64,000 nucleotides of DNA from Lytechinus pictus. Its lineage: Eukaryota. Below the pieces are notes generated by a model that did not search any database, was not told the origin of the DNA, and saw only the letters and a list, made by a program, of their open reading frames with translations. The stretch is from contig NC_087252.1 in assembly GCF_037042905.1 (NCBI RefSeq), positions 124,001 through 188,000 of the forward strand, given 5' to 3'. The position numbers and the translations under genes were made by a program. Below, one piece after another: positions 834 to 49,764 of this stretch. Within the stretch, counting starts at the first letter, position 1. Each line of letters begins with the position of its first letter.

Positions 834-1194
834 GTTTCTCTTGTACTTCAGATAGCTGAAGAAGGCCCATTTATGGCCGAAAGCTTGTGAGCGGAAGCGC
901 TTGTTCCGACTCTGGCACGCAAAACTCAATTCTGCTTTCAACAATGCAGGCTGATTTTCCATAATTTAGTTCCACCTCCCCAGGATGTTCACCCCCACCC
1001 CCCCCCCCCCTCTTACCACTTTATTTCCAGTCCACCTCGGATGTGCACCTCCTCATGCTCAAGCCAGCCTATATACGATTTCGTATAACTGTCATTTGGG
1101 TCTATTATGGCACGCTCATAGGGAAACAATTAAATATATGTTTCACTTGAAAAAAATATGTTTCTCTTCCACTAAACCATTTCACTCAAAGAAA

Positions 1195-1645
1195 TTTATA
1201 TTTCACTTATCAAAAAAATATGTTTCACTTTAAGAAAAAAAAATATATTTAACTTTTCAAAAAAATATATTTCACTTTTCAAAAAAAATATATTTCACTT
1301 TTCAAAAAAATATATTTCACTTTTCAAAAAAATATATTTCACTTTTCAAAAAAAATATATTTCACTTTTCAAAAAAATATATTTCACTTTTCAAAAAATA
1401 ATATATTTCACTTTTCAAAAAAATATATTTCACTTTTCAAAAAATATATATTTCACTTTTCAAAAAAATATATTTCACTTTTCAAAAAAAATATATTTCT
1501 CTTTTCAAAAAAATATATTTCACTTTTCCAAAAAAATATATTTCACTTTTGAAAAAAATATATTTCACTTTTCAAAAAAATATATTTCACTTTTCCAAAA
1601 AAATATATTTCACTTTTGAAAAAAATATATTTCACTTTTCAACAA
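1195..1645 (+). repeat. Subterminal tandem array of foldback left arm, ~22-24 bp unit aaaaaaatatatttcacttttc
   Basis: Directly visible; mirrored at 7805-8250. Confidence 0.95.
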
Positions 1646-2300
1646 TTTTTTTTTTAATTTTGAGAGAAAACAAATCCTTTCACTTTTGTTGGATAACACA
1701 TGCGGCTGCCGTATTCGACCGTACGTAGAATTCATCTATCTACCTACGTGATATATCTATCTATCTATCTATCTGTCTGTCTGTTTATCTATCTATCTCT
1801 CAAACTATTTATTTTTCTATCTATCTGTCTAATAATTATCTGATTAAATATGTCTGTCTATCTATCTACGAATCTATCTATCTGTCTGTCTGTCTCTTTA
1901 TCTATATATCTATCTAATATTTTTTAATATGTCTGTATATCTGTTTATTTATCAATCAATCAATCTATCTATCTATCTATCTTATGATTTATCTGTCTTT
2001 TTATCTATCTGCCTATTTATCTTTATCTATCTATCTTATGTCTATCTGTTCAAAATATGTATGTCTATCTGTATGTCTACCTTTCATCTTTCAATCTAAT
2101 ATCTATTGATCTGTTCAAATAATCATGTATGTTTATTTGACTGTTTATCTATTTAATATATATCTATTAAATATGTTTAATATGTTATTCTATCTGTCTA
2201 TCTATCAATAAATATATCGATCTATTTTCTCTCTATCTATACATCTATCCATCTATTTATCTATCTGTGTATGTACCTATGTATCTATCTGTCTCTGAAT

Positions 2301-4053
2301 CAGGGGCGGAAATCTCTCCCAAAAGGTAGGGGGGACACAGTGGCGGATCCAGCCTTCGCCAATAGGGGGGGGCGGAAATTTGTTTCAGCCATATTTTCCC
2401 CGATCGGCAGCTCGAAGAAGATTTTTGTTTGTTTCTTTGAAGGGGCAGTCCTCCTTAGTCACTTCTTAGCTTTATTCTTATAAATTAATATATAGTATCA
2501 TAATCCTTATTTATATGATGCGAGCGCGAAGCGCGAGCTAATTTTTTGGAAATTTTATGTATTTTTTCCTTAAATTTGAACATTCTGGGCAATGTTTGTT
2601 ATCCTGAAAAAGATGTGTATGCAACTTAATAATTACTACAAGCGCAAAGCGCGAGCAGAAATAAACTGATGGAAAAGATACCTGTTAAAGTAGCATTTAA
2701 CAATCAAATAATGCGAGCGAAGCGCGAGCTAATTTTTTTTTTGACATTTTCACCTAAAGAATTGAAACTCAAGCAGAATAGGTATATAAGTAAACAATTG
2801 ATGCGAGCGCGAAGCGCGAGCGTAAAATTTCGAGATTTAGTCCTATAATATTTACTGAACGAGACACTCTACTCATGTTTTGTAAATCATGAAAAGGATG
2901 AGTATTAATAATGCGAGCGCAAAGCGCGAGCAGAAAATTTTTATATACGTTTTGAACTGGTACCTGTTGAAAAGGTAACTGTTAAGGACTGCTTGCACTT
3001 AGCCATGAAGGCGTTACATATTTCAACAATCAATAAATGCGAGCACGAAGCGCAAGCTGAAAAAAAACGAGATTTAGACCTAAAAATGGGCCACTCCGTT
3101 CATGATGTACAAAAGGATGAGTAATATTGGGTCTTCCCACATTAATAATGCGAGCACAAAGCGCGAGCAGAAATATTTTGATATTGTGATCTGAAACTGG
3201 ATAATGATTTAAATAGAGAACAAGTTGAGTATCTGAATAAACATGCGCGCGCGTGTTTCATAAATTATTTAGACCTAGAATCTAAGCATTCTATATACAT
3301 GTACATCTTTAATCATGTAAATCATGAAACTTTGATACTCCGATCTGAAAAAAGAGTCAATTTCAGCTTTATATTTCAAGCACTTTGTAGAAAAATTGTA
3401 AGGCAAGCAGCAAATGTTAATATTCAGACCATAAAACTGACATTTTTACAGAGCACTTTTTAAAAATCAATTTGTAAATCACACAAAATAATGAAAGTTC
3501 GATTTCCAAGGTGAAATATGTTTTGTATATTGACTTCCAAACTTGACATTCGAGCTCCATATTGAACAAGATATGTAAATCACCTAACAGGCAATGCGAG
3601 CGCGAAGCGAGAGCTAAAATGTTATATATAGTGGCACGAAAGATTCTTTTTATTTTCCAAGTCTTCGCCTCATCTTGTTTTATGCACTCGTCGTCCTCTT
3701 CATTTTCTCCTCTCTTTTCCCTCTTTTATTCCTTCTTTCTTTCCGTTTTTTTTTCTTTTTTTTTGCTCCGCCAAGAGGGGGAGGGGGGGGGGCGGGCCCC
3801 TCGGCCCCCTGGTCCGCCTACGGGGACAAGGGGCGGGAACATTTGACAAGCAAAAAAAAAGGTTATCCCAAAAGTAAGGTCATCTTGTCCCAACTCGTCC
3901 CCAAATACATGTTTTATTTCGATTTAGAATGATGTATTTCTTACCATCATAAAAGACCAAAAATAGTAGGGGGGACATTTGATATTGTGTCCCCCCTACT
4001 ATTTTGAGTAGGGGGGACACGTCCCCCTGTCCCCCCTGGGATTTCCGCCCATG
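2301..4053. mobile_element. hAT-like non-autonomous element in foldback left arm
   Basis: TIRs caggggcggaaatc / gatttccgcccatg; 8-bp TSD ctctgaat (2293-2300, 4054-4061); empty site present in the right arm. Confidence 0.85.
2338..3822. mobile_element. Second hAT-like element nested inside 2301-4053, with repeated gcgagcgcgaagcgcgagc motifs
   Basis: Ends cagtggcggatcc / ggtccgcctacg; gggaca-type duplication on both sides. Confidence 0.7.
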
Positions 4054-5713
4054 CTCTGAATCTATGTTTAGATCAAATATATCATAATCACCGTTATCAT
4101 CATCATCATATTTGCCATCAATCATTATCAGCATGATCATCCTCCTCATCATCGTATATTTTTTCGTCAATCAATATCTATCTAATGTCTGTCTATCTAT
4201 CTAATACCTATTTATCTGTTATATATATATATATCTATCTATCAATATATATCTATCTTCTATTAATCTATCCACCTATCATTTATCCCTCCATCCATCC
4301 ATCTATTTATCTATCTTTCTTATATGTATCTGTTTAAATATGTATGTCTATCTGTCTGTCTATTTATCTTTCATACTTATATCCACTCATTTGTTTAAAT
4401 AATTATGTCTGTTTATCTATTTATCTACGACAGGCCACCTAATTCGTCCGCACGACGAATTAAAATCTAGTTTCACTTGTTACATTTTAAATCTGAGAGA
4501 AAACAAATCCTTTCACTTTTGTTGGATAACACATACGACGGCTGCCGTATTAGACCGTACGTAAAGTTCATTCCTCACGTAAAATCCATTCCTCTCGAAA
4601 AACATTTTACTCTTGTTGCAAAATTCATTTCACTCAATTGCAAAAAATACGTTCCTCTTTTTTCTCGGCCTGTAGGCGGCGCGCTTCATTGTTGGCGGGA
4701 AATAGAGATGGTTGCAAAATTTTCGCTGTGCTGAGGGGAGAAATCATGAAAGCGGTTGCAACTCACAAAATGACAAGGATATGGGGATATCAGCGAACGC
4801 AATTACGTCACTTTCCCACGTGCACGAGAATGCACCACGAGGTGGGCCCATGAACACAAAACGTGAAGTTTGATTTTATCACTGATTATGCACAATAGCC
4901 AGTGCAATCAGCCGTTGCATTCTGCCCTACGATCAATCACTAACCTTATCACGGTCTGGCTATACGTTTTGTAGGCATGGGGCATGAATACTTTATACAT
5001 ACACTATCTATAGAGCTGAATGGTCAAGGTAAGTGTTGAAATTTCCCTTTTCTCCATTCCGTCTGTCTTTTACTTCATTGACATACGATGATCGTAATGA
5101 TTGATTAAATGAAGCTTACAAAGAGCTACAATTCACTGGTCAACTCGCTTGTACCTGCACTGCAAAACCAAATTCTCTCCAGTTTGTCCGAGACATGAAT
5201 GGGGGGTTTTCCAATGCTACTCTCAGAACGGGCAGTACTTCACCGTCTTTTGAACAGACATGAAAAATGAGTATACGGGACTGAAGTTAAGTGATGACGT
5301 CATCGCTCAACCCTAAAAAGTTGGTGTTAGCCGAGAATGTCCACCGAAAGCGATGACGTCTTCACCCATTCAGTCATGTATGTTTACCGCCTATGTCTGG
5401 TTTGAAGAAGCACTGCCCGTGACAAAATGGTGAGAATTTGGTTTTGCAACGGAAGTACAAGCGAGTTGACCAGTGAAATGTAGCCTTTTGTAAGCTTCAT
5501 TTCATCAATCATCGCGATTATCGTATGTCAATGAAGTAAAAGACAGACGGAATGGAGAAAAGGGAAATTTCAACACCTTGTCCATTTAGCTCCGGAGATA
5601 GTGTAGTGCCATGCGTGGAGCTATTCATGCTTCATATCATGCCTACAAAACGTTAGTGATTGATCGTAGGGCAGAATGCAACAGCTGATTGCACTGGCTA
5701 TTGTGCATAATCA

Positions 5714-5876
5714 TACCTTGGTCACATTTGCTCTACGGCGGCCGTACGGCGAGTCGAAAACAGTCGTTTTATTCATTTTCATCCAAAGCACCTATATGTA
5801 GCTGGTACAATTTTTTTTTTAAACGGCTGGTTTCGACTCGCCGTACGGCCGCCGTAGAACAAATGTGACCAAGGTA
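5714..5876. mobile_element. PIF/Harbinger-like MITE in foldback right arm
   Basis: Long TIRs taccttggtcacatttg...gtacggcgagtcgaaa; 3-bp TSD tca; absent from the mirror site near 4885. Confidence 0.85.
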
Positions 5877-7292
5877 TCAGCAATAAAATCAAACTTTATG
5901 TTTTGTGTTCATGGGCCCACCTCGCGGTGTATTCTCAGGCACGCGTGGGAAAGTGTCGTAATTGGGTTCGCTGGTATCCCCATATCCTTGTCACTTTGTG
6001 TGTTGCAACCGGATTCATGATTTCTCCCCTCAGCACAGCGAAAATTTTGCAATCATCTCTGTTACCTCGTCCTGCCAACAATGATGTGCGCCGCCTACAG
6101 GCCGAAAAAAAAGAGGAACGTATTTTTTTGCAATTGAGTGAAATGAATTTTGCAACAAGAGTGAAATGTTTTACGTAGCGAGAGGAATGGATTTTTACGT
6201 GAGGAATGAATTTTACGTACAGTCTAATACGGCAGCCGCCGTCGTATGTGTTATCCAACAAAAGTGAAAGGATTTGTTTTCTCTCAGATTTAAAATGTAA
6301 CAAGTGAAAAAGAAACTAGATTTTAATTCGTCGTGCGGACGAATTAGGTGGTCGGTCGTAGATAAACAGACATAATTATTTATACAAATGAGTGGATATA
6401 AGTATGAAAGATAAATAGACAGACAGATAGACATACATATTTAAACAGATACGTATAAGAAAGATAGATAAATAGATAGATAGATCGATGGTTGGAGAGA
6501 TAAATGATAGGTGGATTGATCAATAGAAGATAGATATATATTAATAAAAGGGATTAATATATAGATAGATATAAACAGATAAATAGGTATTAGATAGATA
6601 GACAAATAGACATTAGATAGATATTGATTGATGATGATAAAAAAATACGATGAGGAGGATGATGCTGATGATTGATGGCAAATATGATGATGCTGATAAC
6701 GGTGATTATGATATTATATTTGATATACACATAGATTCAGAGACAGATAGATACATATATACATACGCAGATAGATAAACAGATGGATAGATATATAGAT
6801 AGAGAGAAAATAGATAAAAGCTAAGAAGTGACTAAGGAGGACTGCCCCTTCAAAGAAACAAACAAAAATCTTCTTCGAGCTGCCGATCGGGGAAAATATG
6901 GCTGAAACAAATTTCCGCCCCCCCCCCCCTATTGGCGAAGGCTGGATCCGCCCCTGTGTCCCCCTACCTTTTGGGAGAGATTTCCGCCCATTCAGAGACA
7001 GATAGATACATACGTACATACACAGATAGATAAATAGATGGATAGATGTATAGATAGAGAGAAAATAGATCGATATATTTATTGATAGATAGACAGATAT
7101 AGAATAACATATTTAACAGATTTAGTAGATAGATATTAAATAGATAAACAGACAAATAAACATACATGATTATTTGCACAGATCAATAGACATTAGATTG
7201 AAAGATAAAAGGTAGACATACAGATAGACATACATATTTTGAACAGATAGACTTAAGATAGATAGATAGATAGATATATAGATAGATAGCTG

Positions 7293-7340
<48 letters not shown>

Positions 7341-7804
7341 TATAGATAGATAGATATATAGATAAAGATAAATAGGCAGATAGATAGAAATTAAGACAGA
7401 TATACAGACATTTAAACAGCCGGATAAATCATTATATAGATAGATAGATTGAATGATAAATAAACAGATATAGACATATTAAAATAAATAAATAGATATT
7501 AGATAGATAGATAGATAGATAAAGAGACAGACAGATAGATAGATAGACAGACATATTTAAACAGATAATTGTTAGATAGATAGAAAAATAAATAGTTCGA
7601 GAGATAGATAGATAAATAGACAGACAGATAGATGGATAGATAGATAGATTTAAACAGATAGATATATATTAGGCAGAGAGATAGATAGATATTTCATGTA
7701 GGTAGATAGATAGATAGATGAATTTTACGTACGGTCTAATACGGCAGCCGCATGTGATATCCAACAAAAGTGAAAGGATTTGTTTTCTTTCAAAATTAAA
7801 ATGT

Positions 7805-8250
7805 AACAAGTGAAATTATTCTTTTCAAAAGTGAAACATATTTTTTTTTGAAAAGTGAAATATATTATTTTTTGAAAAGTGAAATATATTTTTTTGAAAA
7901 GTGAAATATATTTTTTTGAAAAGTGAAATATATTTTTTTGAAAAGTGAAATATATTTTTTTTGAAAAGTGAAATATATTTTTTTGAAAAGTGAAATATAT
8001 TTTTTTTGAAAAGTGAAATATATTTTTTGGAAAAGTGAAATATATTTTTTTTTGAAAAGTGAAATATATTTTTTTGAAAAGTGAAATATATTTTTATGAA
8101 AAGTGAAATATATTTTTTTTGAAAAGTGAAATATATTTTTTTGAAAAGTGAAATATATTTTTTTTATAAAAGTGAAATATATTTTTTTGAAAAGTGAAAT
8201 ATATTTTTTTTATAAAAGTGAAATATATTTTTTTGAAAAGTGAAATATAA
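7805..8250 (-). repeat. Subterminal tandem array of foldback right arm (gaaaagtgaaatatattttttt)
   Basis: Reverse complement of the 1195-1645 array. Confidence 0.95.
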
Positions 8251-8676
8251 ATTTCTTTGAGTGAAATGGTTTAGTAGAAGAGAAACATATTTTTTTCAAG
8301 TGAAATATATATATAATTGTTTCCCTATGGGCGTGCCATAGTCTATGCACGCAGACTAGGTAGGTCTGGCCTAGAATGTGAAGATTTATGACCATTTAGA
8401 GCCGGGATTTAGAGCTTACTTTGCTTGTGGAGCTGCCGTCCGATGGGGACCACACCCTGGTGGTGTGCCACGCGATCTGTCTTTTGATTGACACTGTTCG
8501 TGTCGTCACCACGAAAGCAAGAGACCCCCAAAACAGTCATTGAGATGGTTTTATCTCTCGATCCCATGCCCCCAATACTTCAAAGATGCACGTCGTCGTT
8601 ATAGTTTTCACGCATATTAGCCCTATAGTTTTCACGCATATTAGCCCTAATCAAATCACCTTCCTTATTGGCTTCA

Positions 8677-9260
8677 ATGGAGATGGTCCGGGCTGAAAGT
8701 GTTTATAGCTTAATAAATAGAGTAGAATTCACTGAGCAAAATGCCGAAAATTTCATCAAAAACGGATAACAGATAACAAAGTTATTGAATTTTAAAGTTA
8801 AGCAATATTTTGTGAAAACAGTCGTCATGAATATTCATTAGGTGGGCTGATGATGTCACATCCCCACTTGTTCTTTTGTATTTTATTATATGAAATTTGG
8901 TTTATTAAATTTTTTTCCTCCAAGAACTAGAAAATTTGGATTGACAACTGATTTAGTGCATTAGATATTTATTGCTGCAACTTATTTAATTATAAGGGAG
9001 ACATATTATTCACACCAGCATGAAATAAAGAAAAAAATATGATTTTATGTAATAACATAAGAAAACGGAAAGTGGAGATGTGACATCATCAGCCCACCTA
9101 ATGAATATTCATGACGACTGTTTTCATAAAATATTGCTAAACTTTAAACTTCACTAACTTTATCATTTGTTATCCGATTTTGATGAAATTTTCAGCATTT
9201 TGTTCAGTGAATCCTACTCTATGTATTAAGATATAAATATTTTCAGCCAGGACCATCCCT
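8677..9260. mobile_element. Palindromic Kolobok-like MITE
   Basis: gatggtccgggctgaaa / tttcagccaggaccatccct-ttaa; long internal inverted symmetry; left TTAA degenerate. Confidence 0.7.
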
Positions 9261-11316
9261 TTAAATCTGTTTAGATCGAATAATGTGATGAAAGCGGCCC
9301 TTTTCTGGCCTATCTCTAGAAAACCTATCAGTATTTTCGCAAGGTCGATCGTTGCAGGTAAAATTCTCGGGAAAAGGATGGAAGCAAATTACATGCTTTC
9401 GAGTTGTTTTAAAGTTTTTTTAGTTTAAAATTTGAAGTGACTCTCTTGGAAGTGGGTGTATCGGTTGTGTAGTCCCCCTACGACAACAAATCACGAGTGC
9501 GTGCGAACGACGCCAATCAATATGAATAAACATTAGCTAATTTGCATATGACTGATATCCACGCTCTGCAGAGCCAGTGCGTTGTACTCTTGTGTACTCA
9601 GTGACACGCTTATTGATCAGAAATGTTACCAAAACTTCTATAATATGTATTTAATTTTTAGTAAATATAGATTAATTTTTTCATATTAATGTATGTACAC
9701 CTATAGCATGCAGCATAGAATTCTAATTTGCACGAGTTATTTAAAAAATATGATATAGTAAAGTAGATTACGACGTGCGGTCACTGGTAAATAGTGCTTT
9801 AAAAAATTATATACATACTGATTTTGAACCCTCATGTATATCTTTGCGCAGAGGCAGTATCGTAGCCAATGAGGTTTATCCGAGGCGCGATTATTGCTAG
9901 TTGAAAACTTATCCCAATACCCCGCTCTGACGACGTGAAATACCGTCGGCTGTAGCAATTTTTCCAGATCTCCCAGGAGATCTCATAATCTAAATGAAAA
10001 GAAAGAATCATAAATAGAACACAACCTCCATAAATATATGGAGCATGGGCATGATGCCCTTTTATCTATGATAGATAAAAACAAAAGTTCCTTCTACCAT
10101 AATTCCTTATTTTTGTTTAGCTCTTAACTTCGATTTATTCACTGAATCAGAAATATCTAACCTACCGTTTTTGTTTGTTTAAATTCATTTATATTTCCTA
10201 TTGGATGTCTTCTTTCTCAGTTTAGACCATATTCAGTCATTCATTTATTAACAGACTCATTCATTATCATTTGTGTTTCAGATATTAGCCTTTTTTAAAA
10301 GGCCATTCTTCAGAAAATTAAATTTTCAAATTAATAGGCTTATTTCTTTCTCTAAAATAAGCCACAGTCAACACATTATGATGCCGATCACGTACATTAC
10401 ATAAATAAATATAGGCCTATTCACCATTTTTTTTTCAGCTAAACGATATTGAATTATTTCATTGATTGTTTTATTTAGTCAATTTCGTATCCGTTTTTAA
10501 TTTTATGTTTAATTTATTTATATTACAAAGGTAAAGGTCATGCATTATAGACGGTAGACTGAAACAAATATAAGTAGGCCTAAACTTTGAAAAATAAAAT
10601 GTGGTCTCACGCGGGTGAAGACTGAGCGTAGTTATCTAAAATGAATTAGGTATATAAAAACTATATAGGACTATACTGTGTCATGGCCTCGATCAAGGGG
10701 AGGCGGGGGCTTGGAAATTTATAGGCCTTAGTCAGCAAAATTGTTACTTAATTAGGGCCTATATACGTTAATGAGAAACAGAACTTATTTTAGAAGCAAT
10801 AGGAAAATCTCGAAAACCAAATCATTATGTCCTACAGAAACTGGTAGGACAGAAACTGGTAGGCCTACTCTTGAGGCCACAACAACAAAATAATTATAAT
10901 AATGATAATAATAATAAAAAATAATAATATAATAATATTGATAATAATAATAAAATAATAACACGAGGCGCGCACCTATAATTGAACCGTTATTCAGCAG
11001 GACTATAAATAATACTCTACATGTATGGTTATTGGCACACATTGGAGTATTTCCTTGAAAAACTAATATTTTGAAACATGATATGCCCCCAAAAGCAACT
11101 CCGCCTCATTATACATTAGGGGCGCCTGGGGCTCTAAAAAACGTGCAAAACTCTTTGGCCTTTTAGTGATCCACCAAGTCACTCATCAATCACATAAATA
11201 TTTAATAATCAGATATGCTCATAGAGATTGATTACGTATACTTGCAGTGTAGAGTGGATTAAACAAAAAACAGAATGATGAAATTTATGAGGAAGTCATG
11301 ATTTATTTATTAGGTG

Positions 11317-11535: not shown

Positions 11536-13648
11536 GTAAGTGAATAAAGCCTGATTTAAGAGATCTGATATGAGTATGATGGAATTTGTTGGTGAGATTA
11601 TGTGTGTGTTGAGTTTAATTGAATCTTGCAATCTGTGGGGATCAGTCCCATACGTTCATTCTTTTGTACCCTAAACTAATGAACGACTCTTGTGCGTAAT
11701 TGCTTGTCTTCATTTTTGTGTGTCCTTGAATTTGAAAGTCTTAGTTAAAAAGTACTTATTTTTTATGAAAATTTAGAATCGTCCCATACGTATGGTGTTG
11801 TTTTAACATTATGCAAATGAGGAGTTTGATGACACCTGTTCTTGCATAAATTTGCATAATTTAACATTTGCTTTTCTGGAATTGGAAAAATAAACTTAAA
11901 ACTTAAACATAAAAAGTTAAAGTTTAAGTTTGACTCTTCTTTGGCTACAATCTAGGCCTAATAACAATCATTTGTACATTAAATCAAAATGAATTTTTGA
12001 CAGCCGATAGGAGTTAGGACATTGCCTTGGACTCCACCAAAATCATCAATTTCATATTTTGGTGGCCCGCAATTAAAAGCAAATTTGGTGGCCCTAAATA
12101 ATAGAAAACATTACATCAAAACTTTGGTAGCCAAGCAAACCAGGCCACCAACTGACCAAGTGTGGGATTTTACAGAATTTGGCTGCCCGTCTCTCATTTC
12201 TGGTTGCCCCGGGCCACTGTTAATAATAATATCGAGCCCTGTCATTCATTCCTTCCATTTAACAATCGACCCTTTTTAAAATATTTTTTCCAGTGTGAGT
12301 GTATGCTCTCTCTGTCTATGAAGGCAAAACTGAAAAATACCCCTTTCAACGCATTTTCTTTGGTCATGCATGTGTACAGTAATATTTGACTGCCCCCGCC
12401 CCCCCCCCCCCCACCCCGGGGGCAAAGCAGTACAGCTGCAGAGCTTGGAAAAATGTCACCAGCACTGATGAGATGCAGCGTCACTCTGGGGCGACACCGC
12501 TATTCCAACGCGTGTTGGAAAAGGCGACGCCAGACGGGTACGTTTTGGCCTTGAATTTCCAGCCCATTCCTCTAAATTACGGCCTAAATTTAGGTCTAAC
12601 TTATTCATTATATACTAATTGACTAATTATAATGTAAAATGGGTACTCACCGGTTCTTTTCTTTCCAAATTTTGTGTTTTCATCGCCTCTTCTGGCCAAC
12701 TCTTGCGGCGGCTGTTGTCGCCATAGGATCCTGTACATGCAAATCCAGGGCGAGTTGTTACATGACGCTCGCGAGTCTCTAGGCTTTATGGCCTTTAATC
12801 AAGGCGTTCATTTTGTTATAATTTTATAATGACGCTTAAATATCGAAATCAATGTAGACGAGTCTGTGCAGGGGCATAACAGAGATGTTATATTCATTGA
12901 AGTGGTTTATAAATCTTATCTCGGGGGTCTTTATGGACATTTATCAATTCTTTGTTCTGTGATATATTGTAATATAAATTATGAACGTCTGACAAAAAGA
13001 TAACCAACCGATCACCTGACCGATCAGCTGACCAGTACGTGAATCACATCGGAGTTGATCAGTCCTCACAGCGTTTGGAACGCTCACCAAGAATTCAATA
13101 AAAAAGACTGAAAATGTAACTTTAACCTCACTCCATTAACTTTTAAACATTGTAAAAGATTATTTACGATGTTAAGAACTAATTCATACCAAAATTTTTA
13201 CCATCCAATTTGTATTAAGGCGTACATTTGCCAAAGTCCTTGGGTGCAAATAGAAACGGCAATGTCTAACCGGTTTTATCACTTATGTTGCCTATGAGGT
13301 CCATACATGTAATGTTTGGACCTCATTGGTACTAGGAGTGTGCAGTGTTAATTGACTGGTGAATTGATGCTCTAAAAGTATCAGTCAGCATGACCTGTGC
13401 TCCAAAATCCAATCTCATTCAAGATTTCATTATCAGAATTTAAATAAAAAATGCCCTTTTTTCATTATGTTCATGATGCCAATATTGATGTCATCATATT
13501 GATCAGTTGAAATATTTCAAGGAGCTCCAGATCATGGACCCACTAAATGGTGATGACTCTGCAGGGGCAACTATCTCCATTTTTCTCCAAATATTTGAGG
13601 AAAAAAAATCCCAAAGTTTGTGAATTTCTCCACTTTCATTGATCTTAA

Positions 13649-14232
13649 AGGAGAATGAAACCCTTGAAACCAGCTGAATCCATATCAAAGAGAAAAATCA
13701 AAGAAACATATTGTTGAAAGTTTGAGGAAGATTGATTGAATAATAAGAAAGTTATGAGCATTCGAATATTGAGATCACTAGTGCCATGTAGATCCTCCCG
13801 ACGGCAATGCGACCAAGATCTGTGATATCACACACGTACAACTCCCTCATTACTTTAGTACTTATTTCACTTATATTCTCACTTTTATAGAGTCTATCAC
13901 AAGGTGAGGTGTTCTCTTTATGAGATGACAAGTACAGAGGTTCGTACAACATTATATCATTGATGAATCGTTTGTCATATGATTAGAATGAGCAAAAAGA
14001 GATGTTTTGGGGTATATTTTCAGTGTCCAAATGGGAGAGTTGTACGTGTGTGACATCACAGATCTTGGTCGCATTGCCAATGGGAGGATCTCCATAGCAT
14101 TAGTGATCTCGACATTCAAATGCTCATAACTCTTTTATTGCTAGTCCTATTTTACTCAAAGTTTTGTTGATCTTATTCTTTGATTTTTCTGCTTTCACAA
14201 AAGCTAACTTGCTCCAAGAGTTTCATTCTCCT
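13649..14232. mobile_element. Palindromic Kolobok-like MITE with TTAA TSD
   Basis: ttaa-aggagaatgaaac ... gtttcattctcct-ttaa. Confidence 0.8.
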
Positions 14233-14764
14233 TTAAAAACATGACCCACTGGTTAATAATTCCAAGTTCTTTATTATGAAAAAAGGATAGAAACCAAGTA
14301 TTTCATGTTTAATGCCCTTTTTTTATGGAAAGAACTTGGAATTTAATCCATGGATTGGTTCTTTATAAGATGATGGAAAATAACTTTGAATTCAATCAAT
14401 GGATCAGTTCTTATGATTATGAATAAAGGATGTAAACTGTAAAGTGCAAACTTTAGTTTCATTTCAAATTATTTAGAAATAAAATAAGAAACGCATTGTT
14501 ATTTGGAATGGTCGTGTTGTTTCATGGAGGCTTATTTTTTATCATTGAGAAACAGTGAAAATCGATAAAAGTCTTCAACAAAATTGGTATGATAGTCCAT
14601 TTTAACAAAATTTGGTCACAAACATAGGCAAATTTTAATAAATGAGTTTATGGAAATGCTAAAATATTGATCATTGTAACATCTTTGTGGAAAATTTATC
14701 CATGATGGAAATGAAAAAAGAAATTAAGGCAACATACTTCTTTCTCGGGCAGTCTGACACTGTT

Positions 14765-18598: not shown

Positions 18599-21500
18599 GT
18601 GATATGATGATGATGAAGATGATGATGATGATGATGGTGATGAAGGTGATGATGGTGATGGTGGTGATGATGGTGATGAAGGTGATGATAATGATGATGA
18701 AGATGATGGTGATGATGGTGATGATGATGATGATGGTGATGAAGGTGATGATGATGGTGATGATGATGATGATGATGATGATGGTGATGATGGTGATGAT
18801 GATGATGATGAAGATGATGATAATGATGATGATGGTGATGAAGGTGATGATGGTGATGGTGGTGATGATGATGATGATGATGGCGATGATGGTGATGATA
18901 ATGATGATGAAGATGATGATGATGATGATGGTGATGAAGGTGATGATGGTGATGATGGCGATGATGGTGATGATGATGATGATGGTAATAATAATGAAAT
19001 AAATTGTTTAGGGTTTGTTATTACATGGTAAATGGCAATGAGGAGAAGAAGCTGGATGGCTATGATGGTGGTGATTGTCTTGAACACAATATTGATGTCA
19101 GTAGTGATCATAAGTAAACTCAAAAGTAAACTGTCATATGAGGACTGAGATTTGACAATAATTTTCAATCTTGAATATTAACCATGGAGCTCCGTAATAC
19201 ATGTAGCTCCATGATTAAACATTGCCTGAAGATGTGCCTAAGCAATGCTTCCTATCCTTGATTGTTTTTTTATTATTATATGCCCGTCTCGACGGGACGT
19301 ATTAAGGTTTCACGCTCAGTGTCCGTCCGTCTGTCTGTCTGTCCGTCCATCCGTTAACTTTTCCTTGTAAACGCGATAACTTCAGTTTAACTTAACCTAG
19401 GCTCATATAATTTGGTGTGTATGATACTAGCATGGATCCCAGGAAGCCTGTAGATTTTGAGGTCAAAAGGTCAAAGGTCAAGGTCACAGGGACATGTTTT
19501 CATCTTACCCTTCTGAAGTCTTTGTAAACACGATAACTTTACTTTAACTTAACCTAGGCTCATATAATTTGGTGTGTATGATATTAGCATAGATCCCAGG
19601 AATTCTATTGATTTTGAGGTCAGACAGTCAAAGGTGAAATCGCCACCTTCCACTTTTCTTGCTTGACCAATAACTCCATTTTCTGCTTTACAGGCAGGCA
19701 TATTATGTGCTCGCCTTAGCGACACTCTTGTTTTAATATATATTTTATAAATTTATTTTTTTTAATGCTGTATTTTTTCATCTTTCTTTTGTTGCTAATT
19801 TAGCACTCTGCATAGTAGGAAAGTACATAGATTGGTGCATTATAAATCATATCTATTATTATTATCATCATAAATAATGATACACAGGATTATAACATAA
19901 AGTTGCTAAACACATTATTAAAATTTATTGATATCATGAACACAGGGAGTAAGGTATCCTAAAAGTAACTATTACTACCTCCAAGATCTTCTGACGAAAC
20001 CTATAGAGAACCCTCTGGTCAAGTTACATCAGAAGAGATTTCCATTCTATGAACTTGGACAAGATGAAGACAGAGGTAAGTAATTATTTTTTATCTTTGA
20101 CCTGGGCCCGTTTCATAAAGGACTTGCAACTGTTGTAACTTTGCCATAATGGCAACTACCATGGCAACATGGCTCAGCAGCCAATCAGAATCAAGGTTAC
20201 CATGGTAGTTGCCATAAATACTTTGCCATAATGGCAACTACCATGGCAACATGGCTCAGCAGCCAATCAGAATCAAGGTTACCATGGTAGTTGCCATAAA
20301 TAATGGCAAAGTTACAACAGTTGTAACTCTTTATGAAACGGGATCGCGGTCTTTATAGGGATATAAATGTGAACAGCATAGGTCAAATCTGCTATACATG
20401 TATAGCATGCACATCAACAGAACTGTCTTTTTTCCAAGCACATTGTGATGTCATTCAGGTACACGTAGTGTATGATTTATGTTTTTGTATTCATGTCTTG
20501 TCATCCTTTGTTTATTAAATTACTTTATGTTGCTCACATTTTGGTATAAAATTTGTAGACAAGGACAAGGTTATGCATTAAATGGTTCTGTGACATTTGC
20601 TCTGGCGACAATTGCTCCAGAAATATGCATGTTAAGCCAAAATAAAAACTAACCTCCAAAAGTAAATAAACCTTAATCTTTATCTTTACATATATCAAAC
20701 CAAAAACTCTTTGGCCCGAATTCACAAAGGTGGTTTTTAAAACCCACGGTTGAATCCATGGTTTATGCAGATTTCCTGTATAAATTAGGCTTAATTACAC
20801 GTATCGGGTGCGTGTATAAAAAAAATGTCCAATGCTGATGCGCGCTTTTGTCACAGTGCGCCTAATTGACGCCTGTTACCATGATAAGATACGCAATTTT
20901 ATTCATGAGTCCACTGTTGTCTGTTTGAAGAGTGGACTCATAAATAAAAACTACGGCAACAGGCGTCAATTTGGCGCACTGTGACAACAGCGCGCATCAG
21001 CATTGGACATTTTTTAATATACGTGGTAAAATAAGCGTAATTTTGAATTCGGGCCTTTTACAATGCAAACTCTAACCCTATGCCCTCAGAGACATTGCCA
21101 GGAACACATGTTGCAGGAGTCATGTCACCGTATAATACTATTATGTTATAGTTTCTTTTGTCATCTCATCTTGTTGTTTCTTTTTGTAGGTTTTTCATCA
21201 AGAATAACAAACATTGTGTTTTGCTGTGTTGTGTTACAAAACGTTTTTACATAGTGTTATTTCTCCTTTTTTTCTAGGCACTGTGTACTTTAAGCACAAT
21301 GATGATGTCATCTTTCATCCAGAGGAGCTTCTTGCCATTGCCCTCAATAATTCAAGACAAAGTGCTGAAGGATTTGCTGGTAAATTCAAGTTCATTGTTA
21401 ATTTTGGTGTTGGCATTGGGCTGATATACATCAGCAGAGCTCCAAGAGTAAAATAGGACTGGGCCAGTATTCTATTCGATACCTCAGCCAGAATTTCAAG

Positions 21501-24500
21501 TAGTTTACTCAGTATTTTGCTAAAGTAAAATACTTATCCATCTTTGGTATTCAATCATATTTTTTGGCTCCATAATTTGCTTAAATCAAAGTCAGCAACC
21601 TTTTTAGGAAATGTCTCACTTGGTGTATTTCAAGTTCAATGTTGAAATTCCTGTGTTAATGCCAGGCCAACTTTTCATTTAGCATAGCACCAAAATGAAA
21701 ATAAGATTGGTCTTTGGGAACAGTCTCACTATGTTTTGAGCCATTGTTTTATTTGATTGGGACCATTTTTTTTACGTACTATGGAAACCGTGATTGTGAT
21801 TAGCTGCTGAGCCCTGTTCCAATGTACTACCATAATGCCAAAGTTACCAGTTTTTCTTATGAAACTGTTGGCTAACAGATAACAAAAATGATAATTCTCT
21901 TCTCTAATCTCTCTTACTCAACTTTCAATTTTCCACTGTAACCATTAGCTTCTCCAAATAAAGCAGTCCAACACTACTCAATTAATTAATTCATAATTTG
22001 TAAAAAGAATTTTAAGTTAAACAAATAGAACACTGTTTGAGGTAACCAGAGGGGGGGGGGGGGGGTGTTTCATAAAATGACTTGTCAGATGTTTTATCTG
22101 ACAGTTATAATATAAACTCAAGTTCTCAGCCAATCAAATCAATGAAAGTGGTCAGATCTGACAACTTGATCGGCAAAAAATTTTGATGAAATGCTCTACT
22201 GGTGTTATGTATTTTTTTCCCACACAGAGCAAATTATTAAAGATGCAGTGATCACATTACCTGCATTCTTCAACCAAGCAGAGAGGAGAGCCGTTCTTTA
22301 CGCTGCTGAACTAGCCGGTCTAAGGGTACTCCAGTTAATGAATGACAATACAGCAGGTAAATCAACTGTTTACATGCTAATGTTGCAAAGGCACTAGTTG
22401 CAATTCTGCACATTTGCACGTTGAATTCAACAATTGTAATAATTAGTTTTCTCCCTTACCTTCATGTGAGAGAAGCTTCTTGGGTAACATCAACATATAT
22501 ATATGTTGTAATGATTATCAGTCAGTATCAATGGTATATAATTGAAATTCTAGATTCAGAGCAAATATCATAAAAACAATTGCCAGTATTGATTCAATGT
22601 GGAAGGCCCTCGGGAAAGTTTATTTGAATAGATCAAAAATCAAACAAGTTTAATGCTGATTTTTATTCATATCCAGTTTATCTTTGGGTATGTACTGCCA
22701 GTGGAGGGCAAATTTCTATGATTAAGTTTATAGATCAATAAATGAATGTGTCAGAATCTACATGTAAATCTCTGAAAATTTTATTGAATATCTGATGTAA
22801 ATTACCCTGGTTATCGGATCTTTGCTCCCTGCATACAAGTATGCACTTTCTTTACTCCCTGGGGGCATTCCAACAAGAGGTTTACAGTATGTGGAAATTG
22901 ACAGAACCGTTCCACATTTTTTCGCTCAAAGTAACAACTTATGTTTTCTCCCAATGGGAGCCTAATTTTCCACAAGCTCTGCTTTTTATTTAGGCTCCTC
23001 ACTTTTATGACATTTTGAAGTGTACCTTGTGTTATATACTTATGTTAGATAGTTAATTTGATACACTGTGTATGAATACGTTTGTTATGTATATTTGTTT
23101 TAACCCTGATTCTCCCGGGGGGGGGGCCATAATGGCCCCCCCCCTTGACAATTTTCGCTATATATCTGCTGCGCAAAATTTTTGACCTCGCCGCTCACTG
23201 ACTTTTTACTTTCAAGTCTCGCGCAAATTTTGAGACCAAATTTGGGACGCCCGGGTACGCGGTTACGACATTACGCAACATTATGTAAGTGCATGTCAGA
23301 CCCAAAATTGCTCATAAACGTGATTTCATGTACAAATCCAATGCAAATTGTGTATTAAGCCAAAATTCATAAATGTATCATTATTTCTACTTTTACTGAT
23401 TAAACTTAATTAATTTTGCCTTGTTTATGATCAGAATTAAGTCTGGAACGATTTCCATCGAAAAAACAATAAAAAACAAAGAAATACATAAGAAATTAAA
23501 AAAACAATAAAATACATAAGAAATCGGTCTTGGTACCAGAATTTTTTCCATTCACAATTGTTAGGAATGCTATAAAGAATATTTACACCAAAAAATAGCA
23601 TTCTAGGAGCTTTATTTAGTGAATCAGAGCAAAAAGTATGATTTCATGAATAAATTAGCATAATTTATTCATATAAAATAAAAATATATGAATTATGTGA
23701 AATTTACCAATGCAACTGTGTAGATTACGTCATTCTCTACCATCATGCAAATTTTCGTTGTGATCGCGCAATCCGCGGCTGAGATCTTAAGGGGGGCCAT
23801 AATGGCCCCCCCCCCCCCCCCCCCCCCGGGAATGACAAGAATAAAAATAACCCGGGAGATTTAGGGTTAAAAGTGGAATAACTAAACGGTCAAACCAATG
23901 AAGGGAGTAGGTTATACTGATTACATGTAGAAGTGCTTTAGAAACACAAGTTTTAAAACCTTAAATTTACCCCCTCTTCAGTTGCTCTGAACTATGGTGC
24001 ATTTCGTCGCAGCGACTTCAACTCCACACCCCAGAACATCTTATTCTATGACATGGGAGCGGGAAGCACTACAGCTACCATCGTCAGTTATCAGCTGGTT
24101 AAGACTAAGGAGAGAGGTATACAAGAAACTAATCCACAGCTAGCCATCAAAGGAGTTGGGTAAGTTGGTCTATTATTCTAATTTATTACAGTATTATATG
24201 AATGACATGAAGCTTTAAAGGTGTTCATGATAGACCCAGTGTTGAAGCTGACTTGAAGCCTGCCATATTTCTAATGGGTGGTGCTCTAGTATCGAATCAG
24301 TGTTCGGTTATTTGAATCATCTTGCACATGCGCACAGATTCAATGTAATGTACGTCTGTACTAGCATTATGTCAAACCTAATAGGCCTACTGATCTTTTT
24401 ATGTCCATATGTTGTTATCAGGTTTGATCGTACCCTTGGTGGTTTGGAATGGGAGATCAGACTTCAGAAACACCTTGCTGAGATGTTCAACAAACAAGGA

Positions 24501-27500
24501 AAGACAGCTAACAAGGTGGAGACATCTAACAGAGCTATGGCCAAACTACTCAAGGAAGCTAAGAGGGTGAAGAAAGTTTTAAGTGCCAACAATGATATCA
24601 CTGCTCAGGTAGGGAAGTGATGATGTGAAGTTGGATTTGGTTAGGGATGTTAATGAGGAAGGGGAGGAGTAGGGAGAGTAGAAGTAGGAGAAGGGGATAC
24701 AAAGGGGAGGTGGAAAAGGAGGAGGAGAAGGAGAGGGACGAGGAGGAAGAGGAGGGGGATGACAAAGATGATTTTGAAGATGATGATGATATTCAGACTA
24801 TATACTTATTATGTGGCAATCCTTTTTCATTACAAGCTAACAAGGGAATCACTGCAGAATGCCAAGTAGAGATTATAAGAATTATAATTAAAAAAATTCC
24901 CAGCCATATTGTTCTCACCTTTGAACTTAAACCTTTGCCCTATCAGATTGAAGGTCTGCTTGACGACAAGGATTTCAAGGGTCATGTGACCAGGGCGGAG
25001 CTTGAAGAAATGACCTCTGACCTTTTTGAGAGGGTCGGTGGACCAGTGGAAAGAGCATTGAAATCATCTGAAATGATTATGGTATGTATTCATATACAGT
25101 GTTTGTAGATATTATGCATATGACGTCCTATTCTCATGGTACCCTTCATCAAAGGAGAAATACCTGTAAATTGAATTATCAGAGATGCACCAGCTGCAGA
25201 TCACCCATACATGCAAGACAATTGCATCAGCCTCTTTGTTGGCACAATGACGTAAATGCATAAGGTTTATACTAACTGAGATTGATTTGAGTTTTTGACT
25301 TTCACTATTTGTAAATGAACCTCTAAAAAAACAGGATTATAATCATAATTTAGCTTTTTGTCAGTGTCCATACAAAAAACATTTGAATTAGAGAAAGTAT
25401 GTATTTTTTTATTAACTTTGTTTTGTATTTATGTAGTGGAATTATATATGTAACTATATGTATTAAGAAAAACTGCTATATAAACACAGCTTATTGGGTT
25501 GGTGTTGAATCAGTATGTTTCCCCTTAGATTATCTTAAGTATTGTTTTCAATTTCATTCCATTTTATTTTCAATATAAAGACATAGAGTTTTCAAAGCAG
25601 CTGTGGTTAGCAATAGGGTGCTCTATTTAAACCAGTTTGTATTGGTTACATGATAACTGTATGCAACATTTCGCTTAATGCAATGCTTCTAAAATCTAAG
25701 AGAGCTCTGCAGACTGTTACCCCCAGCTTTAGCAAGGCCACCCTGACAGGGTGCTTCAGCATTCAAAGAATGCCTTCCTCCCAGTTTCCCATTTACTTCA
25801 CATGATAGAGAGTGGCAAATATAGATAACGCCTTTCCAAAGGAAGTGAGTACTGTGGTGAGATTTGAACCCCTGACCTTATGGGTTACTTACCCAATGAG
25901 CCATAACACCTCTATTATATATATATTTTTTTATTTGTTTAGGATGAGATTGATCAGGTTATCTTGGTTGGCGGTGGAACAAGAATTCCAAAAGTTCAGG
26001 AGACGCTGTTGAAAGTAACAGGAAAGTAAGTAATAACGTTCAGCATCTACAAATTATCAGTGGGTAATTGCAGATTATTGTATGTTTTCATGGGAATTTT
26101 TATTTTGATTTTCTGCATTCTCATCAGAGATATACAATATATTATAAAGAGGTAAAAAATATATAACAAATCAGCGATACTCTGGTTAAAATATTAGCAA
26201 TGAAAATAAATAACAAAGCGTTTTATTCGTTTCACAAAATGATCATTTAGAGGCATGCAAGAGACTGCCATCATGAGCAATTAGGCTTGATAACGATGGT
26301 GGCCTCGTAGATTTGACACTATTCAGATATTAATAACCCAGAGTAGAACAAGATTTATGACCAACAGAAGAATTTCTTGCTGGTACAGCGAGTTTGCTTT
26401 CCCCCCAAGATATCTCTGTTACATAAATTTCCAATGCTTTTCACAAAGGCTAGGGTCAGCAAATAATCGAATTCTAATGAAATCTTACGCCCATCTCAGT
26501 TTTGTAGTTAGTACTCATGTTATGAATGATAGTATACCAATGATGTACAGATGTGAGTGCATCGGTAGGTTTTGTGAGCGTAAGGTAACTATGGCAAGGC
26601 GCAGCTGAGTGAGATTATACTAGTTTCCATAGTTCCCACATGCTCATTAGTCCTACCGATGCTTAAACAAACCTGTGTATCATTTGTTTTATAGAATGGT
26701 GGATTTTTTTGCTAAAAATCAATTTTTTACAAGCATGCATAAGTGATAACTGACGCATGGCTAGCCATGCATCTGGTAAATTTGCCATGCATTAGTAATT
26801 ACCGGACACTTGGCAAATTTACCTGATGCATGACTGTCCATGCGTCGGTAATTATTTATGCATGATACCCATTCTATAATTTACTTTGTCCCATCATTTT
26901 CATCAGTGTTGAAGTTTACTCAACCCTTCATTAAATCCTTTCAGCAGTGAAAATGAAATAATTTTTTATGTATATGATGCAGGGAATAATTTTGCTGTAC
27001 AAATTCGAATAGCATTTTTGGTCATAAGAGAAAAGCTCTCAACTAAGTTATGTACAGTCCTATGTAAAAATATGCTATACAAAAGACTTTATGCATAGCA
27101 GTCTTTCAAAAATGTGAAGCAAATTACGATGCGATATCAGGAAAATTATTCCCTGATGATGAAGCAAGCAGCCTACCAAAAGAATGAAGGTCAATTTAAT
27201 TTGTCTAGTTCTGTCAGTCAATGGTCTGTAATCTGAAGTCCAGTTTAACTGAGGCCATTGTCTATTAAACTCTGTGCACAAATGATGGCAAGCCAATTAC
27301 TGTACATCAGGATTAGCAGTCAATTGTAAATTATGGGAAGCCAAAGATGTTAATATTTGGTTTATATTATTTTGTACTGTTCTCTTTATGAATATAAACT
27401 GTTTTAGTTATAATTCCCAGTCAGTGGTGAATGATTTGAGTGTCATATGAGCTGATAAATTTAACATGTACAGTAAATAGAGATGTTTGTCACATATATT

Positions 27501-36906: not shown

Positions 36907-39900
36907 GATCTATCACTTTTCCTGATACTAAATCCTGGCATACTTTACTCCACCACCACCTGTACAGATTAAAGGAACTGCAAAGAAAAGAGGAGGAGCG
37001 TGTTGAGAGAGAGCAGGCCCTCAATAGTCTTGAATCCTTCATCTTTGATGCCCAGGATAGGCTGTATAATGAGGATTATGAGAAATGCTCTACGGAGGAA
37101 AAGAGGGAAGATATTCGGTCAAAACTCAGCGAGGCATCTGATTGGCTCTATGATCAAGAGCCTGATACACCCATACAGGTATGCAGATTGGAATTAAAGG
37201 GTGAGGGGAGGGGGGGGGCACAACCATCTTAATGCCTCAATTACTTCATGTCCGTGATAGCATGAAAGGTATACCAATTTTTTCCAGATTTTTGCAATTT
37301 ATATTATAAACTTATCAATGTAGGCAGGTAATTCGCCCAGCTGGGATAAACAACATTTGTTACTATCTTGCTTTTGTTTACGAGATTGATATTCACTTTG
37401 TATTTGCTGTAGCCTCCCTCATTCCCCACCTTACTGGGACTCGTTTACATCTGAATTTGAAAAATCCCATAAGTTTTCTACTCCATCCTGTTTCATAAAT
37501 GTTGAACAAAATGATGATCACAATCAAGGTTTCCATAATGGCAATGAACTATAAATGAGGTAATTAATTTCATGTTTAGAAAATAATACAATGCTTCAAC
37601 ATCGTTTTTCATGGTCACTTGCGGCAAAATATGAAATGAAAGGAAATAGTTATTTCCTTTCATCATGACAGCTATTTGTCAGGTGTTTGTTTGAATCATA
37701 TAGTAGTCTGCCATTCTAACTCTGTTACATTTATGAGTGCTTAATTTCTTTTCCTCTTTTTATCCCTCTGTCAATTATAAGTGAACGCCAGAGGCATTAT
37801 GATGTTGGGTTGTTGTCAATCCGTCCCATTTTCATCATCAATTTTGAAAGTTCATTGCAAGTGCATGAGAGATAATAACATTAATGTGCTATACAATGAC
37901 AGTGAATTATTATTTCAAAATCTCTTAGTTACTTTGCTGGAAGGACCCCATGGAAGAACAGTATAGTCATGTCGATTAAACTTAATATGGGCTATCCATC
38001 CATTTTGCATTTTTTTTTTTTTTTTATACGGAAAATAAATACTATGTTATACTATACTGTACTATATTATACTATACTATAACAAAATTAAATACTAGAA
38101 AATGACTTCCTTTCAAGTATAGGCATACAAAGACAAGCTCAAAGATCTGAAGAAATTGCTTAAGAACCTCGAGTACCGAGTAGATCAGCTGCGACGACGA
38201 CCCGCTGCCATTGAGGCAGCCAAATCAGCACTCAACGCTTCATACCACTTCATGATGGCAGCCAAGAACGTCACCGGCGAGGACTTACTTTACACCGAAA
38301 CAGAATTTGGTCTTCTGGAGAAAGCTTATAATGAAACCAATAATTTTTTTACCACTAAGTTGGAAGAGCAGGAAAGGACTGCATTGACAGAGAAACCTGC
38401 TTTAATAGTTTCAGAATTAGAGGAGAAACTTCTAAGCCTTGAGCGGGAAGTGAGGTATCTTGTAGGCAAGGCAAAGTCAACGCCGAAATCAAAGCCAAAG
38501 CCAAAGAAAAAGACTGATAAAAAGAAAAAGACAACAAATACAACAGAAACAGATGAAGGTAATGGAGAGAATGGTGGTGATGAAGAAGGAGAAGAAAAAG
38601 AAAAAGGTAATTTTTAGTTCTTCTGTCTTTGAATTTTAAGTCACTTTTGCAAGTTGTAGCAAACTTGTGAAACCCTGCTGACATTTTTTTAGCAAAATAA
38701 ATTGTTATCTCGCCTGAACACAGTTCGGTAGAGACATAGTAATCACTATTCCTGTTAGTCTGTACCAAAATGATAGTCTTTGCTCAACTTGATCTCATTT
38801 CTTTATTTCTGCATCAATTGTTTACACTTGTATAAATAACCATTGGGTAATGTCACATGTGTGTTTATGAGGATGATAAGGTCAAAAGATCATATTGCAT
38901 ATTTTATTGATCGCTATATCAGGCTAGACTTGTGGTTCGTGAACCACCTGTTTGATCTACTCTTTGTTGGAAAGTCGCAAGTTTGTCTGTTTTTCTGATT
39001 TTTTTTTCACAAAGTGGGACTGAATTTTCTAAAACCTTGATCAAGAATGACAAATTACAAGTATTATTTTTTTTTTTACAATTGGGTGATGGAAGTTATT
39101 AAAAATCTTATGAAGCACCCAAGAACATGTTTCAATGGTGTATAAAGTTGAATGTAAGTTTTGAACAGCTTCATGCCCTCCCACCTGATCAAACAAATGT
39201 TTTATTGTATGATTTCTTCTTACTTTCGCTTCCAACAGTTGTTATCCCTCCCCCTGAGGAAGGAGAGGAGGCCACTGATAATGCACAGGATGAGGATCCT
39301 GCTGCAGTAGATGTTGAAGGGGGTGAGGAGCAGGAACAGGAAGAGCCAACTGAAGCCACACCCACCGGGGAGGAAGAACAAATACCAGAAGAGCCTTTAC
39401 AATTAGAAGCACCTGAAGAAGGTAGAGTAAAGTCCAAACTTTTTTATTTAATTTAATAGGTACATATACTCTCTATTTTCCATAAGTTAAAAGGGGACTG
39501 GGCTATTTGAGATGTATTGAGGAGGGGGGGGCCTTCTGATCTCGGCCGCCGGTTGCGTGAAATTTGGCACGCACATTCTTTACCACATGAACTACTAGCC
39601 AGTATTAAAAAAAATTCTGAAAATAACTATTTTTTATTCATTATGAATGAAGTACGCATATTTATTCATGAAAAACATTTACATATTTAACTCCCAATTT
39701 CACTTATTCTCTTATTTTTCCAGATGTCATCTTTGTAATCTAATTTAAAGGTTTCCACAAAAAAGAATGGTGAAAGCCAATTTTTTCCTTATGTATTTCT
39801 TTGTTTTTATAATTTATTTTGTATTTCGTTGTTTTTTCATCTTTAGTTTTTCATTGTTTTTTCAAAGGAAATTATTACAGACCATTTAACAACTAAATTA

Positions 39901-48815: not shown

Positions 48816-49764
48816 TTTTTTGTCTCACCTGCATAGCAGAGTGAGACTATAGGCGCCGCTTTTCCGACGGCGGCGGCGGCGGCGTCAACACCAAATCTTA
48901 ACCTGAGGTTAAGTTTTTGAAATGACAGCATAACTTAGAAAGTATATGGACCTAGTTCATGAAACTTGGCCATAAGGTTAATCAAGTATTACTGAACATC
49001 CTGCCTGAGTTTCATGTCACATGACCAAGGTCAAAGGTCATTTAGGGTCAGTGAACTTAGACCATGTTGGGGGAATCAACATCAAAATCTTAACCTAAGG
49101 TTAAGTTTTTGAAATGTCATCATAACTTAGAAAATATATGGACCTAGTTCATGAAACTTATACATAAGGTTAATCAAGTATCACTGAACATCCTGCATGA
49201 GTTTCACGTCACATGACCAAGGTCAAAGGTCATTTAGGGTCAATGAACTTTGGCCGAATTGGGGGTATCTGTTGAATTACCATCATAACTTTGAAAGTTT
49301 ATGGATCTGATTCATGAAACTTGGACATAATAGTAATCAAGTATTACTGAACATCCTGTGCAAGTTTCAGGTCACATGATCAAGGTCATTTAGGGTCAAT
49401 GAACTTTGGCCAAATTGGGGTATTTGTTGAATTACAGCCATAAATTTGAAAGTGTGTTGGTCTAGTTCATAAAACTTGGACATAAGAGTAATCAAGTATC
49501 ACTGAACATCCTGTGCGAGTTTCAGGTCACATGATCAAGGTCAAAGGTCATGTAAGGTCAAAGAACTTTGGCCACGTTGGGGGTATTTGTTGAATTGCCA
49601 TCATATCTCTATAAGTGTATTGGTCTAGTTCATAAAACGTGGAAATACGAGTAACCAAGTATCACTGAACATCTTGTGCGAGTTATAGTAGTTTTTAAAA
49701 TCAGCACTGCTGCTATATTGAATCGCGTGATGCAGGTGAGACGGCCAGAGGCATTCCACTTGTT
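48816..49764 (+). mobile_element. Helentron-associated (HINE-like) element with ~160-190-bp internal tandem repeats
   Basis: Subterminal IR gtctcacctgcat / atgcaggtgagac, (ggc)n, repeats containing aggtcaaaggtca, ends cacttgtt, T-run insertion site. Confidence 0.85.

Follow-up and report, generated by a model that had tools for sequence, protein, structure and literature searches.

The right arm of a 7.2-kb palindromic foldback element (positions 1106-8340 of the window, the whole 64-kb stretch of DNA that was analysed) carries an extra piece of 255 bp at 6816-7070, which consists of an added A, a mirror copy of the start of two nested insertions that lie in the left arm, and a second copy of the flanking sequence. 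Its letters indicate that this piece was very probably copied from a left-arm-type template of the same element. Break-initiated, one-sided copying from the left arm followed by end joining is the explanation that we favour, with moderate confidence.

The foldback element and its nested insertions

The host element and the two insertions in its left arm are as follows.

1106..8340, no strand assigned: host foldback element with long inverted arms and TA..TA termini
2301..4053, + strand: outer hAT-like element inserted in the left arm, with an exact 8-bp TSD CTCTGAAT (2293-2300 and 4054-4061)
2338..3820, + strand: inner hAT-like element nested within the outer one, with TSD copies alike at 7/8 letters (2330-2337 and 3821-3828)

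The ends of the host element read TATGGCACG..CGTGCCATA and are flanked on both sides by the 6-bp repeat GTCTAT (1100-1105 and 8341-8346). TA..TA termini and a 6-bp TSD, both found here, are given for IS3EU/GingerRoot elements in PMC10045372. The host element may thus be termed IS3EU-like, a resemblance that concerns its ends only. Inspection of its open reading frames found no transposase and no credible ORF in 1106-8340, and the element is non-coding. Contigs of public sequencing runs indicate that the host family is multi-copy, as are both inserted families.

The hAT superfamily is characterised by an 8-bp TSD and short TIRs, and we take the ends of both nested elements to be hAT-like. The outer element has the TSD given above and TIRs of 14 bp with one mismatch (CAGGGGCGGAAATC / CATGGGCGGAAATC), including a perfect 11-bp core; the inner element has a TSD conserved at 7/8 letters and a decayed right TIR. 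No ORF of at least 120 aa was present within 2301-4053 in the ORF list.

The arms of the host element are modular in build. A 22-bp tandem array is found at 1197-1642 and 7808-8249, and a unit of ~90-100 bp occurs twice per arm (1652-1735, 4485-4571, 6206-6295, and 7718-7818), bounding a microsatellite-like block. A 165-bp hairpin element at 5713-5877, presumably Harbinger-like, occurs in the right arm only with an apparent 3-bp TCA duplication; family contigs without it run on at 5883. Further small inverted-repeat elements were seen at 8682-9257, 218-404, and 13645-14236, with a relative of 218-355 at 51302-51429. A large inverted repeat (48816-49764 and 60717-61681) has ~950-bp arms that are 97% alike, 11 kb apart, and built of 160-190-bp tandem units, with no clear TSD on a quick look. 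A frame with an ankyrin repeat (61645-62349, - strand; Pfam Ank, E 1.5e-5) overlaps the outer end of its second arm. Exon-like frames of an Hsp70-family gene are located at 24252-25108 and 38123-38617 (Pfam HSP70, E 1e-7 and 4e-6 for the first two frames; the third had no Pfam match), and we take them to be like HYOU1/Grp170.

The extra piece, its donor and the divergence of the arms

In the orientation of the left arm, the order of parts in the right arm is outer flank, flank copy B (7070-6990), fragment (6989-6817), extra base (6816), flank copy A (6815-6735), and inner arm. The features concerned are listed below.

2220..2473, + strand: left-arm donor tract, as far as it is visible, with the homologous entry point somewhere from ~2188 to ~2241
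6735..6815, - strand: flank copy A, the original right-arm sequence, with 5/81 differences from the left arm, which is typical of the arm
6814..6817, no strand assigned: non-homologous junction, with AT microhomology at 6814-6815 and the added A at 6816; putative break position
6817..6989, - strand: mirror copy of left-arm 2304-2473, made of the outer element start (6957-6989) and the inner element start (6817-6956)
6990..7070, - strand: flank copy B, the new, left-arm-like copy, with left-arm letters at 7048, 7035, 7022, and 7014
7049..7102, no strand assigned: putative interval of the invisible homologous junction, from the outer-arm alignment

The structure itself was described correctly by the original prediction, which had been made from the letters of the window. 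The right arm retains the empty counterpart of the left-arm insertion site, as a single target site at 6735-6742; in a search of the first 10 kb, ATTCAGAG was found at 6735 and 6990 and CTCTGAAT at 2293 and 4054. The partial mirror copy is the reverse complement of 2473-2304 with 168 matches, one substitution, and two changes in G-run length, and it spans the junction of the outer and inner elements (left 2337/2338 corresponds to right 6957/6956). Chance is excluded by the strength of this match within the window (BLAST E 8e-79). The flank is present in two ungapped 81-bp copies that differ from each other at 5 sites. Missing from the mirror copy are the first three bases of the outer element (CAG, 2301-2303), a detail that the prediction did not contain; nor did it mention the added A with its microhomology or the unequal origin of the flank copies. 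Donor and acceptor lie ~4.3 kb apart, and the arms show no differences between a 2-bp indel near 7103 and position 7048.

The two flank copies are not equivalent. Copy B agrees with the left arm at 80/81 sites and copy A at 76/81, and at the five sites where A departs from the left arm B has the left-arm letter at four; at the fifth all three differ. A local tandem duplication as the origin of the 81-bp repeat was rejected, since it would have made A and B alike. Copy B and the fragment together show 2/250 substitutions against the left arm vs. 62/1212 in six other arm segments, copy A among them (Fisher p = 0.001). Neither count includes the 32 bp immediately beyond B, since the entry point may lie there. 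When indel events are counted, the values are 5/253 for the tract vs. 76/1096 for the rest of the arms (p = 0.002). The asymmetry of A and B and the low divergence of the tract thus identify 6816-7070 as the new piece, of recent age, in keeping with the predicted copying from the opposite arm.

Public sequencing runs were consulted for relatives of these sequences. Among 21 runs the best share of the words of 2200-9300 was 0.26, none reaching half, and four (X1, X2, X4, and X7) were aligned to 5880-7250, all as contigs and with both flank copies masked as repeats, so that the lack of a contig across the 6816 junction, and in X2, X4, and X7 of a joint that leaves out the piece, carries no weight. 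The organism label of X1 differs from that of the other three, and 35 of its contigs were placed, vs. 3100-3900 in each other run. The inner element family is abundant and dispersed, with 155, 145, and 180 contigs (X2, X4, and X7) leaving the mirror terminus at 6956 for unrelated flanks. The left-arm letters that the fragment shares at 6871, 6881, and 6908 make up 0.5-1.1%, 26-34%, and 23-29% of inner-family contig depth in these runs, shares which come from summed contig depth and are a rough measure. Such rare shared letters tie the fragment to the left-arm copy and not to a random family member. As had been predicted, the copying postdates both nested insertions, the fragment holding their junction together with these three minority letters. 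None of the X1 contigs has the left-arm letter at 6871, and position 6908 is not covered in this run, which is not read as absence of the left insertion.

The tract and the left arm of the window are separated by 2 substitutions and 3 indels. This divergence (0.8%) is indistinguishable from that between the right arm and the right-arm-like X1 contigs (1.2%; p = 0.74), so that an older copy made in cis and a younger copy made from another allele are both compatible with it. No second copy of the element junction was found within the 64-kb window, and the donor is unique there.

Both arm types are present among the seven X1 contigs listed. Records 1, 4, 5, and 7 are right-arm-like and records 2 and 6 differ to nearly the same extent as the left arm does; X1 has both types at a depth of 3-8 despite its few family contigs. 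Record 7 aligns at 6569-6736 and 7104-7250, with 2 and 3 letters other than those of the right arm (5 and 8 for the left arm), and has 110 letters between these two blocks. The window has 367 letters there, or 112 without the piece, and a right-arm-like sequence without the piece therefore probably exists. Record 7, aligned at these two blocks and not between them, is too short to hold the structure, which is accordingly unlikely to be shared by all family copies. We infer from the length of this one X1 contig, which derives from an allele or a close paralogue, that the 255-bp piece is not family-wide.

The same contigs bear on the wider claim of the original prediction, that the arms are homogenised by intramolecular gene conversion, and homogenisation was not supported. 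The arms differ at 5.1% of sites and by many indels (one event every few tens of bases), and they retain arm-specific insertions, namely 2301-4053 on the left and the hairpin element at ~5713-5877 on the right. Over 1096 columns, from which the satellite and the worst microsatellite parts were left out, a second conversion tract was not detected (the longest stretch free of differences is 69, permutation p = 0.39; for dispersion p = 0.23). The right arm departs from the four right-arm-like records at 9/723 letters and from its own left arm at 37/723 (p = 3e-5), and is thus nearer to the former, provided that the X1 contigs are allelic. Neither of the two marks of concerted evolution, arms closer to each other within a copy or repeated conversion tracts, was found. 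The copying event lowered the symmetry of the arms. A copying scar does not, then, imply homogenised arms, and in the copy at 1106-8340 mutation has far outrun conversion.

Matched arms may nevertheless belong to the earlier history of the family. At 19 sites, taken from the 39 rows listed of 109, X2, X4, and X7 are all unlike the right arm at a depth share of at least 85%; here the left arm has the right-arm letter at 8 (one of them in the tract), the family letter at 9, and neither at 2. Outside the tract both arms stand against the family majority at 7/18 sites, again among the rows listed (39 of 109). Letters common to both arms against the family point to a progenitor copy with matched arms and not to present-day conversion, and this leaves room for homogenisation that may have occurred at that earlier time. 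At site 7163 both arms have T, with G in X1 record 7 and in 97-100% of family depth. It could be a micro-conversion under 25 bp or a reversion, and as a single site it is not evidence.

Repair, template switching and other possible origins

In the one-sided copying that we favour, a germline break would have occurred in the right arm, putatively at ~6815/6816, and its outer end would have paired with the homologous left arm in the region of 2188-2241. Synthesis would then have covered 81 nt before reaching the left-arm target site and continued for ~170 nt within the nested insertion (~254 nt in total). The new 3' end, for which the right arm has no counterpart, would have been released rather than annealed and joined directly to the inner break end with 2 nt of microhomology and one added base. 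The expected product, in left-arm orientation, would be outer flank, copy B, fragment, copy A, and inner arm, with a duplication whose length equals the interval between break and target site. Direct end joining accounts for the 81-bp duplication equally well as the proposal originally made, in which synthesis ran into the insertion and switched back. We infer the break, the direction of copying, SDSA, and theta-type end joining from the form of the product. The sequence gives no direction of synthesis, and the same product is obtained from the same chromatid, the sister, or the homologue.

Two details bear on this scheme. Microhomology of at least 2 nt is offered by 9% of the possible exit points in the insertion, and the 2 nt observed are for that reason weak evidence under either model. 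The loss of the terminal CAG falls exactly at the TSD/TIR boundary, which one-sided copying does not predict, and a separate slip or a later deletion is therefore needed. As a cause of the stop, a G-quadruplex found little correspondence in the donor, where only loose G-run motifs were present at 2303-2375, ~100 nt from the tract end.

A fold-back template switch during replication, running in the opposite direction and truly intramolecular, would give an identical product and is the strongest of the other explanations, if an unlikely one. Here the nascent right-arm strand would fold onto the left arm, forming a hairpin from which the 1.75-kb insertion loops out. The 3' end of this strand, at 6815, would slip into the loop at 2474 through microhomology and copy back through the element start; after missing 3 nt where the loop meets the stem, it would return to the right-arm template by homology. 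On this model the CAG loss coincides with the boundary of loop and stem and does not touch the perfect 11-bp TIR core, and the four changes in the fragment are all confined to G-rich 2301-2372, which the switch would have used as template strand. However, G-run changes are also common as slippage or consensus errors, the first step would be primed by only 2 nt, and a kilobase-scale hairpin would have to form from arms that are 5% apart. That the scar stems from such an intramolecular switch, with the asymmetric insertion looped out and captured as template, is in our view slightly more doubtful still. If this reading were true, the building and lengthening of the long mirror arms of foldback transposons would leave such scars as a by-product that can be counted, and the rate and direction of arm-to-arm copying could be measured directly in a genome with many of these elements.

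One-sided copying could also have used another molecule carrying the insertion at this site, either a dispersed family copy or an allele whose insertion had reached the right arm through a crossover between the arms. The differences between the tract and the left arm, and the multi-copy nature of the host family and of both inserted families, speak for such a donor. Yet an extra event is required, the tract differences fit allele-level divergence (2/250 vs. 9/723, p = 0.74), the 64-kb window has no second junction copy, and X1 record 7 joins right-type inner and right-type outer flanks just as the window does. We regard this donor as improbable.

Palindromes are known trouble spots for assembly, and the 6816 junction is known here from the assembled window sequence alone. 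A chimera of the assembly or of a long read should nonetheless be a letter-for-letter copy of the left arm, but the piece departs from it by 2 substitutions and a 3-bp deletion outside homopolymers. Family contigs that extend to 6956 on the right-arm version also hint, if weakly, that the family letter at 6953, a site at which the left arm has another one, is retained in the right copy. An artefact of this type is very improbable.

The least tenable explanation takes the piece for a truncated repeat of independent origin or for an insertion made by a transposase, the 81-bp repeat being its TSD. It has in its favour that the piece is built of transposon ends with a direct repeat on both sides, but it is largely refuted by the 5 sites at which the repeat copies differ, one copy tracking the left arm, by the joining of the element end, without its terminal CAG, at the homologue of the left-arm insertion site, by the 8-bp TSD of the outer element itself, and by the rare letter at 6871 common to the fragment and the left-arm copy. 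A dispersed repeat with a TSD of its own, which would have spoken against the original prediction, was thus not seen, the 81-bp copies sorting by arm.

Other duplications were noted elsewhere in the window. A 158-bp direct duplication (157/158 alike) with a 42-bp spacer lies at 46219-46576; most of the spacer matches 46078-46116 just upstream (39 bp, 95%), and from its sequence this is a probable second repair scar. Exact tandem duplications, 100% alike, are found at 20138-20302 (82 bp, two copies) and 56308-56504 (49 bp, four copies), and such identity means that they are very recent or assembly-made.

Comparison with known systems

The scar belongs to a known kind, that of the repair-mediated duplications, and resembles the products of aborted SDSA with end joining, a route that starts from a double-strand break and depends on RAD51 and polymerase theta. 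It is a single non-coding event with no known function, in which the donor can be recognised by its nested insertion and the states before and after are preserved in the two flank copies. A literature search, with subscription papers mostly outside its coverage, found no report of such a scar in a foldback element.

Pace et al. (2009; PMC2671141) described 824 closely linked repair-mediated duplications in human, occurring as insertions in transposons. Their donors lie mostly within 5 kb, the proximal ones have a mean size of 162 bp and a maximum of 619 bp, and microhomology and filler are found at the breakpoints. The piece described here is likewise a germline insertion in a transposon, with a donor within 5 kb, a size in the same range, microhomology plus filler, and no polyA tail. 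Its donor is near-identical and close by (2/250 against left-arm 2220-2473, ~4.3 kb off), and of its two junctions one is homologous and one has microhomology plus filler. An empty allele or orthologue, another feature of that set, may be represented here by X1 record 7 (110 vs. 112 letters), a single contig that is either an allele or a paralogue. The target duplications listed for that set are of 4-21 nt, whereas the first junction here is a long homology between inverted arms, with 81 bp of flank duplicated. That survey covered vertebrates, and the present host is an animal outside these.

Experimental counterparts are known from two animals. In C. elegans, duplications of the copied stretch arise when a failed SDSA intermediate is end-joined directly, their junctions showing microhomology and the route depending on polymerase theta (Kamp et al., 2021; PMC8654963), and in the Drosophila P{wa} gap repair assays aborted SDSA with alternative end joining also occurs in wild type (PMC8951532). 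The resemblance lies in an extended end that fails to anneal and is joined directly, so that the copied stretch is duplicated, and in a junction with microhomology. Those events were experimental and used a sister or homologue template at the allelic site, whereas the present one is known from sequence alone and its template would be an ectopic inverted arm whose heterology marks the donor.

Copying from one TIR to the other that runs on into internal sequence has been proposed for Galileo (PMC3573991) and for maize Mutator (PMC10401008). These models share with ours a break in one TIR that is repaired from the other, the copying entering donor-only sequence. They explain completed symmetry or the extension of TIRs from populations of copies, in contrast to the single aborted event here, which kept the original sequence of the recipient and added asymmetry. 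At the level of sequence, the scar is evidence that an arm of a long-TIR transposon can template the repair of its partner, as these models propose.

Gene conversion from arm to arm has been described for the palindromes of Caenorhabditis, in which the arms are closer within than between genomes (PMC1803023), and for those of primate sex chromosomes, in which the arms are over 99% alike (PMC8981503; PMC8600007). The foldback element shares with these palindromes a non-reciprocal transfer between inverted arms and differs from them in its divergence, which is 5.1% between its own arms and 1.2% to the right-arm-like contigs of X1.
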